Below are positions 1 through 5,820 of a stretch of DNA of 5,820 nucleotides, in pieces. This DNA is from a virus (lineage: Duplodnaviria > Heunggongvirae > Uroviricota > Caudoviricetes), in IMG/VR virus record IMGVR_UViG_2778261643_000001, positions 1 to 5,820 of that record; one strand, 5' to 3'. The translations under genes were made by a program, and so were the position numbers. The first letter of the stretch is position 1. The number at the start of each line of letters is the position of its first letter. The notes under the pieces are model-generated. The model did no database searches. It was not told the DNA's origin and saw only the letters and a program-made list of their open reading frames with translations.

Positions 1-392
<392 letters not shown>

Positions 393-393
393 G

Positions 394-416
394 AAAAGCC
401 CGGCGTTCGGGCTTTT
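394..416. terminator. Bidirectional rho-independent terminator between the convergent plus-strand gene and the minus-strand operon
   Basis: Stem GCCCG (398-402) / CGGGC (408-412) with a 5-nt loop, flanked by AAAA (394-397) and TTTT (413-416). Either strand therefore reads a GC stem followed by a U-run. It sits between the stop at 390-392 and the stop of the minus-strand gene at 439-441. Confidence 0.7.
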
Positions 417-438
417 CTGTTATGACGGGTTCAATTTT

Positions 439-1413
439 TTATCCGTTACCGCGCGACGGTTTCTGCGTGATAAACGTCTCAAGCATCTTTTCCGCAATTG
501 CCGACCAGGTGTGACACTGGACCTTTTCAGCATTTTTCACGCGATCAACGCGAGCAATAACCTCATCCCAATCAATCCGCGACTTGATAACCATATGGTT
601 CACCAAAGCCAGGCGATCTGGCGGAAGGCAATCGGGAGGCGTTAATACCAACGCCCCGCACATTGCCGCCTCAAGTACAGTTAATCCAAGGCTTTCGGGA
701 TGCGTAACGATAAACACGTCACTCTTACGCAATTCAGCTGCAAATTCGGTTGCTGGTACCGGCGTCCGTCTGTATGGGGTTACCGATATATTCCCCGGAT
801 CAATGGTAATCAATCCGTCATCGGTCAACGTTCTGGCCTCATACGGAACGGTCAGACGCTGAAGGTTCATAAGGATACTTAAGGAGTGATCAAACCCACT
901 AACATCAAATGCAGCGTGGTCTACAAAAATACGCAGAACATCGTCTGTTTTGGTTTCCAGATGGAACAGATCCTGATTCGCTGCCCATCCAACATGTTTG
1001 TTAAAGCGATTATGACGCTCTAACCTGCCTGGATTATCCAGGTACCGCCAGGTATCATCGCGGACAGTAAAAGTAATATCGACTGGTGCCGAATCCAGCA
1101 TAGAACCGTCGTATACCTGGGCTACCCATCCAGTGAATCGACGACGCAGTTGCACGCCTATTTCCCTGGGCACCGTAGTAAAATACCGCAATCCTGGCGC
1201 TAAAATGGCTTTCGCAGAACACGAGGTCGCAGCGGTCAACACAGCTTCAACATAATCCTCCGGGCTTTCGACGCCGGGGGAATATGGACGATGGTATTGC
1301 AATGTTACCCCTGCCTCACTAAAGGCGCAGGCCAGGTTGTAAGCCCACATTTCCGTATATGTTTTCACATCACTGATAGCTTCAAATTTTCGCCCAATGA
1401 TCAGGATGTTCAT
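439..1413 (-). CDS. dbn: GT-B fold (GT1/GT4-like) glycosyltransferase-like protein, about 324 aa; alternative upstream start at 1437 overlapping the helicase stop
   Basis: Long minus-strand ORF. The ATG at 1413-1411 is preceded by GAGGAAAAG with about 7-8 nt spacing (strong RBS); the ORF-track start at 1437 forms TAATG with the helicase stop. N-terminus MNILIIGRK and C-terminal region SDVFIVTHPESLGLTVLEAAMCGALVLTPPD resemble the conserved E-x7-E region of retaining GT4 glycosyltransferases. The symbol is from my recollection that the gene downstream of ban in P1 is called dbn; it has not been verified by search. Confidence 0.75.
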   Translation of the reverse strand: MNILIIGRKFEAISDVKTYTEMWAYNLACAFSEAGVTLQYHRPYSPGVESPEDYVEAVLTAATSCSAKAILAPGLRYFTTVPREIGVQLRRRFTGWVAQVYDGSMLDSAPVDITFTVRDDTWRYLDNPGRLERHNRFNKHVGWAANQDLFHLETKTDDVLRIFVDHAAFDVSGFDHSLSILMNLQRLTVPYEARTLTDDGLITIDPGNISVTPYRRTPVPATEFAAELRKSDVFIVTHPESLGLTVLEAAMCGALVLTPPDCLPPDRLALVNHMVIKSRIDWDEVIARVDRVKNAEKVQCHTWSAIAEKMLETFITQKPSRGNG

Positions 1414-1436
1414 CGGCTTTTCCTCATTCCATTGCA

Positions 1437-2801
1437 TTAATAATCCTCTTGCCAGTCAGCACCAGCATAGTTATCAAACCGTGAGTATTGGCCGTTAAAA
1501 GCCAATCTCACCGTGCCAATTGGGCCATTTCGTTGCTTTCCGATAATTACCTCGGCAATGCCCTTCATTTCGCTATCCGGGTGATAAACTTCGTCGCGAT
1601 ACAGAAACATGATCAGGTCTGCGTCCTGCTCAATTGCTCCTGATTCACGTAAATCTGAATTTACCGGTCGTTTGTCCGCACGCTGTTCAAGCGATCGATT
1701 AAGTTGTGACAATGCCACCACCGGTACTTGTAATTCCTTCGCCAACGCCTTCAGTGAGCGAGAAATCTCGGCAATTTCCAGCGTTCGGTTATCTTGCAGC
1801 TCGGGGACGCGCATAAGTTGCAGGTAGTCGATCATAATCATGCTCAAACCACCATTTTCTTTATAAACACGACGAGCGCGGGAACGAAGCTCTGTAGGTG
1901 TCAGGGCGCTTGAGTCATCAATAAAAATATTCTGCTTGTCCAACAGAATCCCCATTGCGCCAGAAACCCGCGCCCAATCCTCGTCGTTAAGTTGCCCTGT
2001 TCGAATACGAGTCTGATCAACGCGTGCAAGAGAAGCCAGTGAGCGCATCATCAGCTGGTGGCTCGGCATCTCAAGGCTAAAAACCAATACGGGCTTATCG
2101 TTACGGACTGCGGCATTTTCGACGAGATTCATCGCAAACGTAGTCTTCCCCATCGATGGGCGGGCGGCGACAATAATGAGATCGGACGCCTGAAGTCCTG
2201 CCGTCTTCTTATTGAGATCGGTAAATCCGGTATCAAGCCCCGTTACACCATCATGCGGTCGCTGAAACAACTCTTCTATGCGAGATACCGTTGCATCGAG
2301 AATGCTGGCGATATCTTTTGGACCACTACCGCTCTTTTGTCGTTTTTCAGCTATTTCAAAAACGCGGCGCTCGGCCATATCCAGCAATTCATTGCTGCCC
2401 CTGCCATCCTGCGCATATCCAGCTTCGGCTATTTCATTTGCGACGGAAATCATTTCACGAACAACCGCGCGTTCACGAACGATATCCGCATAAGCACAAA
2501 TATTTGCCGCGCTGGGCGTGTTCTTTGACATCTCCGCAAGGTACGCAAAACCACCGGCGCGTTCTAATTTACCGTTCTGTTCAAGTGCTTCAGCAAGTGT
2601 TATCAAATCAATCGGTTTGCCATGACTTAATAACCTCTCCATCTCACTGAAAATTTCACGATGAGCACTGGTAAAAAAATCATCAGCAACTATACGATCT
2701 GCAACTTCATCCCAGCGGCAGTTATCAAGCATTAAGCCACCAAGTACAGCTTGTTCTGCACTAAGGGAATTTGGCATGGATTCAAGAGGGGATGCAGACA
2801 T
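1437..2801 (-). CDS. ban: DnaB-family replicative DNA helicase, phage P1 Ban-like; likely start at ATG 2801, with an in-frame GTG at 2807
   Basis: The translation aligns by eye along its whole length with E. coli DnaB: SAEQAVLGGLMLDN, AARPSMGKTTFAMNLVENAA (Walker A), LIMIDYLQLM, VPVVALSQLNRSLEQRADKRPVNSDLRESGAIEQDADLIMFLYRDEVYH, IIGKQRNGPIGTVRL. The N-terminus is shorter than host DnaB, as I recall for P1 Ban. GGAG lies 5 nt upstream of the ATG at 2801. The context of three tRNAs, a lipoprotein and a coupled downstream gene argues for a phage paralogue, not chromosomal dnaB. Confidence 0.93.
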   Translation of the reverse strand: MSASPLESMPNSLSAEQAVLGGLMLDNCRWDEVADRIVADDFFTSAHREIFSEMERLLSHGKPIDLITLAEALEQNGKLERAGGFAYLAEMSKNTPSAANICAYADIVRERAVVREMISVANEIAEAGYAQDGRGSNELLDMAERRVFEIAEKRQKSGSGPKDIASILDATVSRIEELFQRPHDGVTGLDTGFTDLNKKTAGLQASDLIIVAARPSMGKTTFAMNLVENAAVRNDKPVLVFSLEMPSHQLMMRSLASLARVDQTRIRTGQLNDEDWARVSGAMGILLDKQNIFIDDSSALTPTELRSRARRVYKENGGLSMIMIDYLQLMRVPELQDNRTLEIAEISRSLKALAKELQVPVVALSQLNRSLEQRADKRPVNSDLRESGAIEQDADLIMFLYRDEVYHPDSEMKGIAEVIIGKQRNGPIGTVRLAFNGQYSRFDNYAGADWQEDY

Positions 2802-3086
2802 TAGCACTCCACCCAGGCGTGCTGAATGTCAGATATAATCGGCATACTCAAATCACTCCTAACGATATGAGTCATCACCAGAAAATCAGGATTAATGCGC
2901 CGGACTCTTCCCGGCTGTCACACCGAATCGCCAGGATGGTGAGTCCCTGAATCCGCTATCCCTCCAACGGTGACTTGCACATTCCGGCTACCTGGTTTGT
3001 TGCCTGAGCTAGGGGAAAAGGCAATCCCTTTAACGTCACCAGACCGCTAACGACGCATGTGCCAGACGCCGTGTTACAACCAAATA

Positions 3087-3162
3087 TGGTGGCCCCTACC
3101 GGACTTGAACCGGTGACCGTGCGATTATGAGTCGCCAGCTCTAACCACTGAGCTAAAGGGCC
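3087..3162 (-). tRNA. tRNA-Ile2-like, anticodon CAU (presumed lysidine-modified, AUA-decoding); tRNA-Met not excluded
   Basis: Minus-strand sequence GGCCCTT-TA-GCTC-AGTGGTTA-GAGC-T-GGCGA-CTCATAA-TCGCA-CGGTC-ACCGG-TTCAAGT-CCGGT-AGGGGCC-A-CCA folds as a 76-nt cloverleaf with encoded CCA. The acceptor and D arms closely resemble E. coli ileX as I recall it. P1 is reported to carry a tRNA-Ile (tentatively trnI). Confidence 0.88.
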
Positions 3163-3189
3163 GGATTACTGCCAATTTTGCTTACGCTT

Positions 3190-4017
3190 TTATTTCACCG
3201 GAACAAACGGAACAGCGGCATTACTGGTCATATACTGCGGTAATGTACCGTTCCATTTGTTGATCGCTTCCAACTCCATAACACCGGGGTTCTGGCGCAG
3301 AGCTTCACCACGTAAACGAATGGCATCAGCTTCGGCCTGGGCTTTTGTGCGAATAGCATCAGCCTGTCCGGCAGCTTCCGCGCGCAGCATGTTGGCCTCT
3401 GCTTCACGTTGTTTGACCTCTTGCTCGCGTTGCAGGGTTTTTTGGTTTGCCGTGACTTTGGCGTTAATACTGTCAATAACTGTTGGCGGGTATTCTGGCT
3501 TACCTACATAAGAGAGGCTCATCACCTGAATGCCGATTGGCGTCATTTCTTCCTGAATGTCTTTAAGGGCTGCATCAAGCAATTCAGATTTGCCACCGTC
3601 GATAAATTTGTCGGTGGTCATTTTGCTGGCTAACCGGTTCAGAGCATCTGCAACCTTCTGGCGTAGATCGGTATCAGTAATATCATCTACACCTTTGCGA
3701 TAGGTCTGAAATACCGTTGTGACTTTTGCTGGATCAACCTTGTAGGCTACGCCGATGTGGTAACCAATGGTTGTTCCGTCGCTCATCTGGAAGCTGAACG
3801 GCTCATCGTATGTCTTCATTTGCTTAAAGGTCGGGAAGATATAAACTTCAGTATTCAAGCCTGTCCAGTAGCGACCAACGCCAACTACTTCACCGATACC
3901 TTTATCATCCCCCAGCTTATTTACTTTGATCCCTACGTTACCTGGCTCTACCCGATCGCATCCGGTCAGGCATAAAGAACCCAAAATAATCGCTGCACTA
4001 ATCAACGTTTTTTTCAT
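3190..4017 (-). CDS. SPFH/Band-7 (stomatin/prohibitin-like) domain lipoprotein with C-terminal coiled-coil, 275 aa
   Basis: N-terminal signal peptide with lipobox (MKKTLISAAIILGSLCLTGC, Cys at the +1 position). The central region reads like an SPFH domain and the C-terminus is an Ala/Glu/Arg/Gln-rich predicted coiled-coil (QREQEVKQREAEANMLRAEAAGQADAIRTKAQAEADAIRLRGEALRQ). RBS AGGA lies about 9 nt before the ATG. It may correspond to the P1 'putative lipoprotein' (plp), but that name is a tentative recollection. Confidence 0.85.
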   Translation of the reverse strand: MKKTLISAAIILGSLCLTGCDRVEPGNVGIKVNKLGDDKGIGEVVGVGRYWTGLNTEVYIFPTFKQMKTYDEPFSFQMSDGTTIGYHIGVAYKVDPAKVTTVFQTYRKGVDDITDTDLRQKVADALNRLASKMTTDKFIDGGKSELLDAALKDIQEEMTPIGIQVMSLSYVGKPEYPPTVIDSINAKVTANQKTLQREQEVKQREAEANMLRAEAAGQADAIRTKAQAEADAIRLRGEALRQNPGVMELEAINKWNGTLPQYMTSNAAVPFVPVK

Positions 4018-4234
4018 TAATTAATTTCCTGGTTTTTTCACGAAAAAAGACTACTGCGAAAGCCGGGTAAATGAGCGCAAGAAGGACTCCCAACAATACA
4101 AGTATTGTGCTGTTAGATGAGATCATATTTGGCAAAAGCCAAACATACAGAACCAGTGACACAATCAAACAGAGGACGGCATAAATATATAACCGCACCC
4201 ATAGCGTTCGACATTTGTTCGGATTGTTCTGCAT
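3998..4234 (-). CDS. Small two-TM inner-membrane protein (78 aa) overlapping the SPFH lipoprotein start by 20 nt; likely co-translated partner
   Basis: Two hydrophobic segments (LYIYAVLCLIVSLVLYVWLL and STILVLLGVLLALIYPAFAVVFF) with a basic C-terminal tail. GGAG lies about 9 nt upstream of the ATG at 4234. The 3' end overlaps the downstream lipoprotein gene. SPFH proteins are commonly encoded with a small membrane partner (NfeD-type), although this protein is too short to carry an NfeD OB-fold. Confidence 0.6.
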   Translation of the reverse strand: MQNNPNKCRTLWVRLYIYAVLCLIVSLVLYVWLLPNMISSNSTILVLLGVLLALIYPAFAVVFFREKTRKLINEKNVD

Positions 4235-4393
4235 CCTCTCACTCCATTATTTAACGAATAAAAAAGCTGCGGTGCCGGGTGCCTCCCGGTGTCCTTTGGC
4301 TGGTTATCCACCGTGGACGGGGAAACAAGGAGAAATGAATGGACTGATATAACCATTTCCCCGCGTGCGCTTAGCCGCATTCACCGCAACGGA

Positions 4394-4453
4394 AAGAGCA
4401 TTCTTGGTGGACCTGTAGATTGGGATATGAACCCGTTACAGGAGAATGCTCTT
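4394..4453. repeat. Nested-hairpin repeat element, copy A: 11-bp outer inverted repeat enclosing the conserved core GTAGATTGGGATATGAACCCGTTACA (4415-4440)
   Basis: Outer arms AAGAGCATTCT (4394-4404) and AGAATGCTCTT (4443-4453) are exact reverse complements. Inside, CCTGTA (4412-4417) pairs with TACAGG (4437-4442), and GGG (4422-4424) pairs with CCC (4432-4434) around a 7-nt loop. The core is 24/26 identical to 5095-5120. Confidence 0.6.
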
Positions 4454-4516
4454 ACCTGTTGCGTACTCCGTTTCATGGAGTTAACGGCGGACTAACCATC
4501 CGCCCCAAATTTATAA

Positions 4517-4930
4517 TTAGCTGCTTGCTGACGGATAGTTTTTGGTTAATTGGACCAAGCGAGCATCAAGAGCTTTTCGATAATCAATCATGCTTCCGAG
4601 CTGAATTTCCAAATCCAACTGCTTGCACTGGTCTATAGTGAGGAATTTATCTGTTCCAATGAATCGAACAAGCTTATTTATGCGCTGGCATAGCTGAGCA
4701 CGTTCGATAATCATTCGCTTGTGGTATTCCTCCAAGCCGTCAATTTTGCCCAACGGAGCTGCTATTTCATTAAATTCACGAAGTGGTATTTTGAGTTCGT
4801 TACCGAACACATCTACAACATCAATTTCAGATGCATCTTCTTTCGAAACTTTATCGACCTGATAACTGGTGCTAACCACTAAAGAAATAACAAACTGCTC
4901 TTTCTGCATAATTACCGTTCTCGCACTCAT
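4517..4930 (-). CDS. Hypothetical protein, 137 aa (130 aa if started at the ATG at 4909); no recognisable family
   Basis: Uninterrupted ORF in a stretch that looks somewhat lower in GC than the helicase region by hand count of a 100-nt sample of each. Neither candidate ATG has a convincing Shine-Dalgarno. It is bracketed by the two near-identical repeat cores at 4415-4440 and 5095-5120. I do not recognise any motif in the protein. Confidence 0.5.
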   Translation of the reverse strand: MSARTVIMQKEQFVISLVVSTSYQVDKVSKEDASEIDVVDVFGNELKIPLREFNEIAAPLGKIDGLEEYHKRMIIERAQLCQRINKLVRFIGTDKFLTIDQCKQLDLEIQLGSMIDYRKALDARLVQLTKNYPSASS

Positions 4931-5047
4931 GGGTGACAGTTTCTAAATAAATTGTGATGGTCGGTGCTGAACTCCGACACAGGGTTGTAGCAAGCCCCGC
5001 AAAGCGCGCACTACTGTAGTTGCGGCACATCAGCCTGTGCATTCACC

Positions 5048-5139
5048 ACAACGTTGAGAACACTGATTGTCACGCTGCAACGCAACATTTATTCGTAGAT
5101 TGGGATATGACCCCGTTACGCCAGTGTTCTCAACGTTGT
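5048..5139. repeat. Nested-hairpin repeat element, copy B: perfect 18-bp inverted repeat (5048-5065 / 5122-5139) enclosing a 56-nt spacer with core GTAGATTGGGATATGACCCCGTTACG (5095-5120)
   Basis: ACAACGTTGAGAACACTG and CAGTGTTCTCAACGTTGT are exact reverse complements. Inside, CGTA (5094-5097) pairs with TACG (5117-5120). Compared with copy A the closing pair changes T:A to C:G, a compensatory change, while the 22-nt interior stays almost identical. Confidence 0.6.
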
Positions 5140-5285
5140 AGTGCCGGTTACGGTTCCGGCCAGGCCTCTTCCTCAACGGGGTGTTCTCCATACGGACTAC
5201 CGTTTATTGGTCGTTCCTGCGGTTTATGTTGTGAAGCCAGATGCTTATCTTCTGGTTGCTTCTAAGAGCTGCACTTCATCACAAC

Positions 5286-5359
5286 GGTAAGGGTACTTCG
5301 TAGGGATTCGAACCCTCTGCCAAGCACGGCGATCTCCGACGTCGCAAAATACCCTTACC
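5286..5359 (-). pseudogene. tRNA-like pseudo-element: a canonical T-arm (GGGTTCGAATCCC) inside a perfect 10-bp terminal inverted repeat (GGTAAGGGTA / TACCCTTACC); not a foldable canonical tRNA
   Basis: The minus strand reads GGTAAGGGTA...GCAGAGGGTTCGAATCCCTACGAAGTACCCTTACC. The 10-bp terminal helix and the T-arm are clear, but I cannot place a D-arm or anticodon arm at canonical distances, and there is no encoded CCA. It lies 8 nt downstream (in transcription order) of tRNA-Thr. Confidence 0.4.
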
Positions 5360-5367
5360 TGTTGTGT

Positions 5368-5443
5368 TGGTGCCGGTTAACGGACTCGAACCGCTGACAT
5401 CCTGCTTACAAGGCAGGCGCTCTACCAACTGAGCTAAACCGGC
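5368..5443 (-). tRNA. tRNA-Thr, anticodon UGU
   Basis: Minus-strand sequence GCCGGTT-TA-GCTC-AGTTGGTA-GAGC-G-CCTGC-CTTGTAA-GCAGG-ATGTC-AGCGG-TTCGAGT-CCGTT-AACCGGC-A-CCA folds as a 76-nt cloverleaf with a 7-bp acceptor stem and encoded CCA. P1 is reported to carry a tRNA-Thr. Confidence 0.9.
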
Positions 5444-5445
5444 AT

Positions 5446-5521
5446 TGGCGATGGTGGATGGATTTGAACCATCGACCCGTTGATTAACAGTCAACCGCTC
5501 TAACCGCTGAGCTACACCATC
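5446..5521 (-). tRNA. tRNA-Asn, anticodon GUU; sequence unlike host tRNA-Asn
   Basis: Minus-strand sequence GATGGTG-TA-GCTC-AGCGGTTA-GAGC-G-GTTGA-CTGTTAA-TCAAC-GGGTC-GATGG-TTCAAAT-CCATC-CACCATC-G-CCA folds as a 76-nt cloverleaf with a perfect acceptor stem and anticodon stem. Only 2 nt separate it from tRNA-Thr. P1 is reported to carry a tRNA-Asn. Confidence 0.85.
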
Positions 5522-5650
5522 ACTTGCCGGGTACGTCTCCGGCGAGGGCTTCCACCTCCGTATGCTTTTCGGCGCACCGCGCCCTGGCTGCAATTCGGTA
5601 ACAGGGGATGCATAACCCTGGCTTCCAGCGTGATTAGCGCCTTCAGCATG

Positions 5651-5665
5651 ACGGGATATACCCGT
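5651..5665. other. Short palindromic hairpin ACGGG-ATATA-CCCGT, related to the GGGATAT..CCCGT core of the repeat family
   Basis: 5-bp stem ACGGG/CCCGT with an ATATA loop. It shares GGGATAT and CCCGT with the cores at 4421-4436 and 5101-5116. It lies about 130 bp upstream (in transcription order) of tRNA-Asn. Confidence 0.4.
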
Positions 5666-5682
5666 AGCAAGACGTTATTCCT

Positions 5683-5703
5683 AAATTGCTAAAAGCAATT
5701 GCT
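5683..5703. promoter_or_regulatory. Candidate repressor operator (P1 C1-type?) with palindrome ATTGCT-AAA-AGCAAT and an overlapping third ATTGCT; probably overlaps the promoter of the tRNA-ban operon
   Basis: Minus-strand reading ATTGCTTTTAGCAATTT matches about 13/17 positions of the P1 C1 operator consensus as I recall it (ATTGCTCTAATAAATTT). It sits in the about 300-bp non-coding region upstream of the first minus-strand gene. No comparable site lies directly upstream of the helicase gene (2802-3086). The -35 and -10 elements could not be placed confidently. Confidence 0.3.
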
Positions 5704-5820
5704 GTTACGCCGAATGAAAAAGGACGTAACAGGTAAGGACGCTGACCAAAAAGATGGCCCTGGATTTGCCCCTATATTTCCAGACATCTGTTATCACTTA
5801 ACCCATTACAGGCCCGCTGC

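Follow-up and report, generated by a model that had tools for sequence, protein, structure and literature searches.

The three copies of the 10-nucleotide word AACAGGTAAG in a 5,820-nucleotide stretch of a Caudoviricetes genome (IMG/VR record IMGVR_UViG_2778261643_000001, positions 1 to 5,820; this whole stretch is hereafter the window) are, in our assessment, probably the arms of a repeated RNA hairpin module that is transcribed on the sense strand and belongs to the same family as LPR2, a small RNA (sRNA) of phage lambda. Three members of this family are intact in the window (hairpins A, M and B); of a fourth (E0), split by the insertion sequence IS2, one half is present. Going by P1's annotation, the window covers the ban operon, leader as well as body, of a P1-like phage-plasmid; the operon is repressed by C1 and transcribed from the minus strand. 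A puzzling repeat would thus be accounted for by RNA structure and not by a recombinase site, and the untranslated leader of P1's ban operon, which is little understood, would be tied to the LPR2 sRNA of lambda.

Copies of the 10-mer and the hairpins they close

The 10-mer has three exact matches in the window, one on the plus strand (5728-5737) and two on the minus strand (5354-5363 and 4451-4460). An earlier interpretation made from the letters alone (the sequence-only reading) had the count right and placed both minus-strand copies one base off, at 5355-5364 and 4452-4461. The copies, and the hairpins that contain them, are these:

4385 to 4463, minus strand: hairpin A, a member of the LPR2 family (minimum free energy -38.3 kcal/mol, z = -5.2)
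4451 to 4460, minus strand: 10-mer copy A, the 5' strand of the basal helix of hairpin A (exact match; pairs with CUUUCC-GUUG in the fold)
5047 to 5140, minus strand: hairpin M, a divergent member without the exact 10-mer (-59.2 kcal/mol, z = -6.8)
5280 to 5366, minus strand: hairpin B, a member of the LPR2 family and the 'tRNA-like element' of the sequence-only reading (-42.1 kcal/mol, z = -5.2)
5354 to 5363, minus strand: 10-mer copy B, the 5' strand of the basal helix of hairpin B (exact match; pairs with CUUACC-GUUG at 5279-5290)
5721 to 5760, minus strand: the 3' half of hairpin E0, truncated by IS2 (homology to P1, RCS47 and the IS2-free twin L003 stops at 5760)
5728 to 5737, plus strand: 10-mer copy C, the 3' strand of the basal helix of E0 (exact match; the minus-strand transcript reads CUUACCUGUU)

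Three copies of one 10-mer had been considered unlikely by chance. Dinucleotide shuffling of the window never yielded three or more copies of AACAGGTAAG itself (0/200); when we corrected for the post hoc choice of word by counting any 10-mer on either strand, 202 of 1,000 shuffles held one at least three times, so the count alone is not significant. The recurrence is non-random by context, not by count: we regard it as real because identity continues outside the 10-mer (17/20 for A versus B, 15/17 for A versus C and 11/11 for B versus C), because every copy is at the base of a hairpin (z = -5 to -6), and because the copies are kept at homologous positions in six P1-like genomes (P1, RCS47, D6, P7, SJ46 and Ro157c2YLVW). 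There is no further exact copy of AACAGGTAAG in P1 nucleotides 1-48000.

The copies at 5728 and 5355 had also been read as an inverted pair bracketing the promoter/operator region together with the tRNAs. That geometry is partly wrong. In every relative, CUUACCUGUU of copy C pairs with a fourth copy (D) of AACAGGUAAG, situated about 56 nucleotides upstream in the transcript (P1, L001 6461-6470; the IS2-free twin, L003 4555-4564), to form E0; in the window this true partner is cut off by IS2 at 5760/5761. Furthermore, P1's Pban and C1 operator fall outside the window, past its end. A long-range stem between copies C and B, enclosing both tRNAs with 11 perfect base pairs in the manner of rRNA processing, was considered and ruled out: D is the better, local partner in all relatives.

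Intact E0 folds with z = -6.0 in the IS2-free twin and -5.5 in P1, and none of 200 shuffles folded as well as A, B, M or E0. The 10-mer is the stem base in every relative that we folded; in the basal helix, AACAGGUAAG (copies A and B) makes up the 5' strand and CUUACCUGUU (copy C) the 3' strand. The common basal helix can be written 5' CAC-AAC-(bulged A)-GG-(U, usually facing U)-AAG-AGCAUUG ... CAGUGCUC-UU-U-CC-GUU-GUG 3'. In A and B the paired segments are CAAC with GUUG, GG with CC and AAG with CUU; a bulged A follows CAAC, and the U between GG and AAG faces U in hairpin A and A in hairpin B. Hairpin M keeps the outer CAAC/GUUG, and its lower stem is compensated, with GUUGAG/CUCAAC in place of GGUAAG/CUUUCC. 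The hairpin interiors are unrelated to one another, save for a 25-nucleotide repeat, GTAGATTGGGATATGA(A/C)CCCGTTAC, that occupies the apical loop region of both A (4415-4439) and M (5095-5119). A related interior with compensatory changes (ACGGGCCCAUAACCCAAUCCAC) is seen in an unrelated viral contig. The interior of hairpin B contains the T-arm-like GGGUUCGAAUCCC, and the hairpin starts 1-4 nucleotides past the CCA end of tRNA-Thr. When the interiors of A, M and B were compared with P1 nucleotides 1-48000, complementary stretches reached 10-12 nucleotides only, which is chance level.

A hairpin family, its strand and its lambda member

We scanned IMG/VR with the viral family pattern AACAGGTAAG-N38-68-CTTWCCGTTG. 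Among the matches listed, it occurs in more than 120 contigs (an estimated 7 or so are expected by chance) and represents 76 distinct elements, for which the consensus is CAC-AACAGGTAAGAGCATTG, then 30-55 hypervariable nucleotides, then CAGTGCTCTTTCCGTTG-TGGTGAATGCGCAGGCTGATGCGC. The interiors fall into at least 48 types with essentially no common sequence; in several, as in hairpin B, a T-arm-like GGTTCGAnTCC hairpin is stacked on the 3' arm. Bacterial contigs, taken at one genome per species, yielded 95 stretches, about half of them chance matches. The 48 bacterial-contig matches with a paired upper stem come from Enterobacterales (genera including Escherichia, Klebsiella, Citrobacter, Enterobacter, Kluyvera, Serratia, Pectobacterium, Pantoea, Rahnella and Erwinia), with the remainder apparently lambda contamination. 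The family is, as far as such pattern matches indicate, widespread in temperate phages of Enterobacterales.

It also appears to be unannotated. There is no RefSeq annotation beneath the matches examined, the Escherichia coli copies included; Rfam has no family for the hairpins in the window, for those of an SSU5-like locus, or for 15 viral loci (the last searched at gathering thresholds); and the hairpin motif, as literal sequence text, has no match in the literature searched. The Qin prophage of strain K-12 has no copy of the hairpin.

Some further occurrences may be recorded here. Very small or low-coverage contigs from unrelated taxa, and one 'Pseudomonas' contig of 48,442 bp, contain the 71-nucleotide lambda version (L238, L251, L254, L269, L282, L286, L298, L304 and others), which is most simply explained as lambda DNA contaminating the assemblies. 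Phage D6 has a 48-nucleotide mini hairpin near tRNA(CAU) (L004 2455-2502, minus strand), which scores 39 bits with the covariance model R1 described below. The SSU5-like phage-plasmids CMS-2020a and Cyrano contain several family members around an Asn-Tyr-Thr-Ser tRNA cluster. We also scanned viral sequences with 16 specified bases of the upper stem as the anchor; chance matches contaminated this second scan, which served solely to illustrate variation in the basal sequence, of which GAUGA/UUAUC and GGAAAG are examples.

The arms covary. Among 69 distinct arm pairs, 9 of the 19 base pairs show changes on both sides, and 94% of cells are paired, as against 35-63% when the partner is slid; none of 500 shuffles reached the observed values. 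In a set of 76 arm pairs collected by descriptor, of which 7 are likely false positives, the non-Watson-Crick positions comprise 122 G·U and 15 A·C combinations; 68 of the 76 retain the bulged A, and 49 of the 76 the U·U mismatch. We built covariance model R1 from 42 diverse members; the training set included an A-type sequence and excluded the M type, and the exact B sequence was also excluded, although a related B-like interior was in. On the minus strand of the window, R1 scores A at 57.7 bits, B at 56.4 and M at 34.0 (E = 6.5e-8 for M); on the plus strand the values are 34.4, 30.6 and 29.2, so that the minus-strand margin for A and B is 23-26 bits. P1's intact E0 scores 38 bits and the lambda element 64.4. 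By these scores, A, B and M each have the conserved basal helix around a variable interior that characterizes the LPR2-like family, and we regard their membership of it as established.

The covariation and the excess of G·U over A·C point to a strand-specific RNA structure rather than to duplex DNA; a G·U bias of this kind is what a structure read from a single strand leaves. Both the structure and its strand specificity we take as established. The orientation within operons agrees: the hairpins of the window are on the strand of tRNA-Asn, tRNA-Thr, ban and dbn, downstream of P1's Pban, and where flanking genes of other members are annotated, the hairpin is again in a sense-strand leader position (Q - hairpin - holin; repressor - hairpin - yfdPQR).

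A further observation concerns lambda, which carries a family element at 44790-44860, directly past the tR' terminator; its basal helix is the same as that of the window (CACAACAGGUAAGAGCAUUG ... CAGUGCUCUUUCCGUUGUG), and we take homology to the LPR2 locus as established. In a preprint on lambda RNAs, LPR2 is described as an Hfq-captured RNA of the late operon, beside 6S RNA, that was detected by RIL-seq (ligation and sequencing of interacting RNAs); on northern blots it gives one band of about 63 nucleotides, mainly expressed in the lytic cycle (bioRxiv 10.1101/2024.10.31.621285). The northern probe, P844 (Table S5 of the same preprint), maps to lambda 44816-44850, within the hairpin; therefore, at least one member of the family, lambda LPR2, is a real, discrete, processed RNA. 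The preprint lists PreS and fliC as the only chimera partners of LPR2, and proposes a sponge role; the text searched reports conservation for LPR1/PreS only and describes no conserved-arm family for LPR2 (bioRxiv 10.1101/2024.10.31.621285). LPR2, named in 2024 without further characterisation, appears to be the sole member of the family to have been studied. We noted that the LPR2 hairpin (L133 988-1063, equivalent to lambda 44787-44862) is predicted to pair with a 61-nucleotide PreS/LPR1 fragment, reconstructed from published primers, at -40.8 kcal/mol, with none of 1,000 shuffles as good; this modelled pairing would fit the variable interior acting as a pairing payload.

Bearing in mind how close the elements lie to tRNA genes, one might suppose that the copies are degenerate remnants of tRNA genes, or that a 10-mer has recurred by chance in a repeat-rich tRNA region. 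The T-arm-like GGTTCGAnTCC hairpins of B and several other members are in keeping with this idea, the elements do adjoin tRNAs, and some 10-mer is found three times in 20% of shuffles. On the other hand, ARAGORN makes no tRNA call at hairpin B (5280-5366), and no Rfam tRNA model matches it, even at E <= 10; the arms do not resemble an acceptor stem and most interiors have no tRNA similarity; and the motif is at homologous positions in all P1-like relatives as well as in the many viral contigs listed above. This explanation is largely refuted by the conservation among relatives, the size of the family and the covariation, and we consider it highly improbable.

Module junctions in relatives

Relatives of the window differ from it by whole modules. 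In RCS47 the order is tRNA-Thr - B - GGUGAAU-type domain - B'. P7 and Ro157c2YLVW have B' only, which is the RCS47 arrangement less the segment between two 5' arms (CACAACAGGTAAGGG), and P1, D6, SJ46 and the window have B only, which is that arrangement less the segment between two 3' arms (CTTACCGTTGTGATGAA). In SJ46, M and A are fused at the 25-nucleotide loop repeat and the region of the window's orphan open reading frame (ORF) is gone. P7 and D6 contain a hybrid, with a lambda-like flank domain held between a 5' arm and a distant 3' arm. Across viral contigs, one interior is found between differing flanks, and one set of flanks around differing interiors. That insertions and deletions have junctions in the arms is, from these alignments, established.

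The sequence-only reading had suggested that the 10-mers are crossover sites or recombination scars, and that relatives lacking an intervening segment, with the motif at the junction, should be sought. Such relatives exist, for a different pair of copies (B and B', in RCS47 versus P7 and Ro157c2YLVW). The arms do, then, mark junctions of module gain and loss; these junctions are variously in the 5' arm, the 3' arm or the loop repeat, a pattern that fits short-repeat recombination better than a defined or dedicated crossover site.

In its full form, the crossover explanation has the 10-mers serve a site-specific system by which the tRNA block would be inverted and the region of the orphan ORF excised; a variant of it would have them fold into a site like the attC of integrons. 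Integron attC sites form imperfect hairpins: the AAC...GTT ends are conserved, some bases are extrahelical and the centre varies. Compared with these general features rather than with an attC model, the elements of the window look superficially alike in being imperfect hairpins of 60-90 nucleotides with such ends, present or absent as modules among relatives; the AAC...GTT ends, bulged base, mismatch and variable centre within 63-90 nucleotides, and the precision with which a hairpin module is lost or gained between RCS47 and P7 or Ro157c2YLVW, with the junction inside arms that include the 10-mer, all speak for such a site. Against this, the hairpin ends (GTTGTGG) are not exact RYYYAAC/GTTRRRY. 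No recombinase family was found among the window ORFs (four scanned with Pfam, the other two long ORFs matched by position). The motif AACAGGTAAG is unrelated to the half-site of P1 lox (ACATTATACGAAGTTAT) and to cixL/cixR (TCCTAAACCTTGGTTTAAGA / TCTTAAACCAAGGTATTGGA), so that the known site-specific sites of the same phage, loxP and cix, which are elsewhere in its genome, bear no sequence likeness to the 10-mer. Copy C has its partner in the displaced copy D and not in copy B. An inverted arrangement of the tRNA block was seen in none of 26 related loci: E0 is upstream, in the same orientation, in 24 of the 26 loci with a P1-type tRNA-Thr. Nor is the orphan-ORF segment delimited, as had been thought, by the copies at 5355 and 4452; the breakpoints of the insert, 4490/4491 and 4945/4946, are about 30 bp off the motif. 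The exchanged segments are hairpin or sRNA modules, not ORF-plus-site cassettes, junction positions vary, and the lambda member is detected as RNA. A dedicated crossover site, folded or otherwise, is in our view very unlikely.

A milder alternative is that the arms are kept mainly as recombination linkers, that is, as boundaries of short homology for the shuffling of leader modules, with the RNA incidental. Promoter-stem-loop cassettes are known in T4-type phages and offer an analogous precedent. The differing combinations of interiors and flanks, the deletion and fusion junctions within arms, and the P7/D6 hybrid are all to be expected of linkers. What this proposal leaves unexplained are the compensatory changes by which one arm complements the other, the strand-asymmetric excess of G·U, the conserved bulged A and U·U mismatch, and the build-up of a discrete Hfq-bound RNA in lambda. 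We therefore judge it unlikely as the main reason for conservation; a recombination role of the arms is real but secondary to the RNA hairpin.

Proposed role, operon setting and known systems

By analogy with lambda, we infer that the hairpins of the P1-like element are expressed and processed, and we consider a division of labour within each the most likely mechanism. The hairpins would be excised from the long ban leader transcript, beside the tRNAs, as small structured RNAs; the conserved basal helix would be a handle for processing and stability, perhaps by way of an RNase III-type double-strand cut near the bulged A, giving about 63-65 nucleotides in lambda; and the variable interior would be the payload, either a base-pairing or sponge sequence or a mimic of a T-arm. 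The arms would also serve as points of short homology at which relatives gain, lose and swap modules, because they are the only sequence shared between modules.

Several points weigh against this interpretation. The G·U excess is equally compatible with a single-stranded DNA hairpin, and many of the G·U pairs are inherited and are not independent events. The arm sets were gathered with patterns and descriptors that demand AAC/GTTG ends and most of the pairs, which inflates the pairing statistics, and conservation of the arms could come in part from gene conversion between copies instead of from function. The nearest downstream ORF is on the same strand in 81 cases and on the opposite strand in 28, a moderate and noisy bias. 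Cuts past AACA and before GUUG would leave about 63 nucleotides in lambda, which is arithmetic on an approximate northern size, and the nuclease named above is a guess. Finally, RNA-level support for the P1-like hairpins is, throughout, homology to lambda.

A broader generalization can be offered only tentatively, as one that we doubt more than we credit: temperate phages of Enterobacterales (lambdoid, P1-like and SSU5-like) might have a large class of cassette RNAs, as yet unannotated, to which LPR2 belongs, with a fixed, nuclease-recognised handle, a hypervariable payload of about 30-55 nucleotides (at least 48 types), exchange of payloads within the handle and, in P1-like elements, arrays of 4-5 RNAs placed among tRNAs under C1 control. 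If true, the class would be a swappable scaffold for sRNAs or sponges, in which some payloads are T-arm mimics and that of lambda pairs with PreS. The data suggest, at least, that LPR2 sits in a widespread family of conserved handles and variable payloads. Should the handle be a processing signal and the payloads be regulators or sponges, this would be a general and testable route of sRNA diversification in temperate phages; should the handle/payload view be true, the hairpin would also be a ready marker of module boundaries in phage mosaicism.

The remaining features of the leader are as follows:

5761 to 5820, strand unassigned: a terminus of IS2, inserted in E0's apical part (matches the IS2 ends of hundreds of plasmids at 98-100% identity)
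5446 to 5521, minus strand: tRNA-Asn(GUU) (ARAGORN and Rfam)
5368 to 5443, minus strand: tRNA-Thr(UGU), directly upstream of hairpin B in the transcript (ARAGORN and Rfam)
4491 to 4945, minus strand: a window-specific insert of 455 bp with the orphan ORF, between M and A (BLAST breakpoints)
4268 to 4388, minus strand: an STnc100-like domain (GGUGAAU...CACC), directly after hairpin A (Rfam RF02076, 37.8 bits, E = 1e-5; below the gathering score of 47 and matching model positions 31-147 only)

Phage-plasmid RCS47 matches the window at 98.5% identity and P1 matches it at 97%; over window 4240-5760, identity to a plasmid from pig E. coli (NZ_CP122822.1) reaches 100%. In P1's annotation, Pban/Op72 comes upstream and ban/dbn comes downstream, all on one strand; past the window end lie Pban/Op72 and a dicF-like region. 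On the minus strand the order is (Pban) - E0 - tRNA-Asn - tRNA-Thr - hairpin B - hairpin M - orphan-ORF (moron) insert - hairpin A - STnc100-like domain - small membrane protein - SPFH protein - tRNA(CAU) - ban - dbn. ARAGORN calls tRNAs for Met, Thr and Asn only. IS2, which is missing from the otherwise identical plasmid NZ_CP122822.1, sits between the ban promoter region and the tRNAs, and may be polar on the ban operon or may be a source of promoter activity for it.

The orphan insert takes the place of 53 bp of P1/RCS47, and its ORF (4930-4517, minus strand, 137 amino acids) has a crAss001_48-related domain (PF21825, E = 3e-15; phrog_15270); its G+C content is lower, judged by eye. In region 3172-4267, an SPFH/Band 7 protein (4017-3190) and a 78-amino-acid membrane protein (phrog_1130, moron category) stand in place of P1's tciA-tciB-tciC; one breakpoint is at tRNA(CAU) and the other is where the STnc100-like domain ends. 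The Pfam scan of four window ORFs returned a glycosyltransferase, the SPFH protein, a weak DUF5693 and the crAss001_48-like domain, and the two other long ORFs match by position P1 gene 5 (baseplate) and ban (DnaB-type helicase). The GenBank P1 ORFs upl and plp lie on the plus strand over hairpins A, M and B (window 4390-5370; P1, L001 5496-6065); upl is broken in the window by the 455-bp insert, and PGAP has no coding sequence there in the twin plasmid. Neither upl nor plp is probably a real gene.

The STnc100-like domain is closed by GGUG...CACC, has a terminal CACCGGGAGGCACCCGG hairpin and resembles the prophage sRNA STnc100. Similar GGUGAAU-type domains come after most hairpins of the LPR2-like family, and their layout has a tRNA-derived look: a closing stem, a hairpin right behind it and a T-arm-like hairpin ahead of the 3' strand. 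The STnc100/PasD prophage sRNAs (RF02076; bioRxiv 10.64898/2026.05.13.724894) share the neighbourhood of the family, namely the leader that runs from Q to the lysis genes (in 933W, after stx2). They differ in that the LPR2-like hairpins are outside the STnc100 model; the idea that the hairpins are the first 30 positions of STnc100 was ruled out, as STnc100 of 933W has no hairpin preceding it.

RNase III processing hairpins are known from the T7 early region and from rrn operons. As a mechanistic analogy drawn from this general background, the LPR2-like hairpins resemble them in having a helix of about 19 bp with a conserved bulge and internal mismatch, in lying between the functional units of a long transcript and in giving a discrete small product, seen in lambda. 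LPR2 itself is the closest comparison. Its interior is unrelated to those in the window; it follows tR' of the Q-dependent late operon, whereas the window has three intact copies and one split copy among tRNAs of the C1-controlled ban operon; and expression, size and Hfq binding are known for lambda alone. What the two have in common is the architecture, with its bulged A and U·U mismatch, and a sense-strand position in the untranslated leader of a long phage operon.

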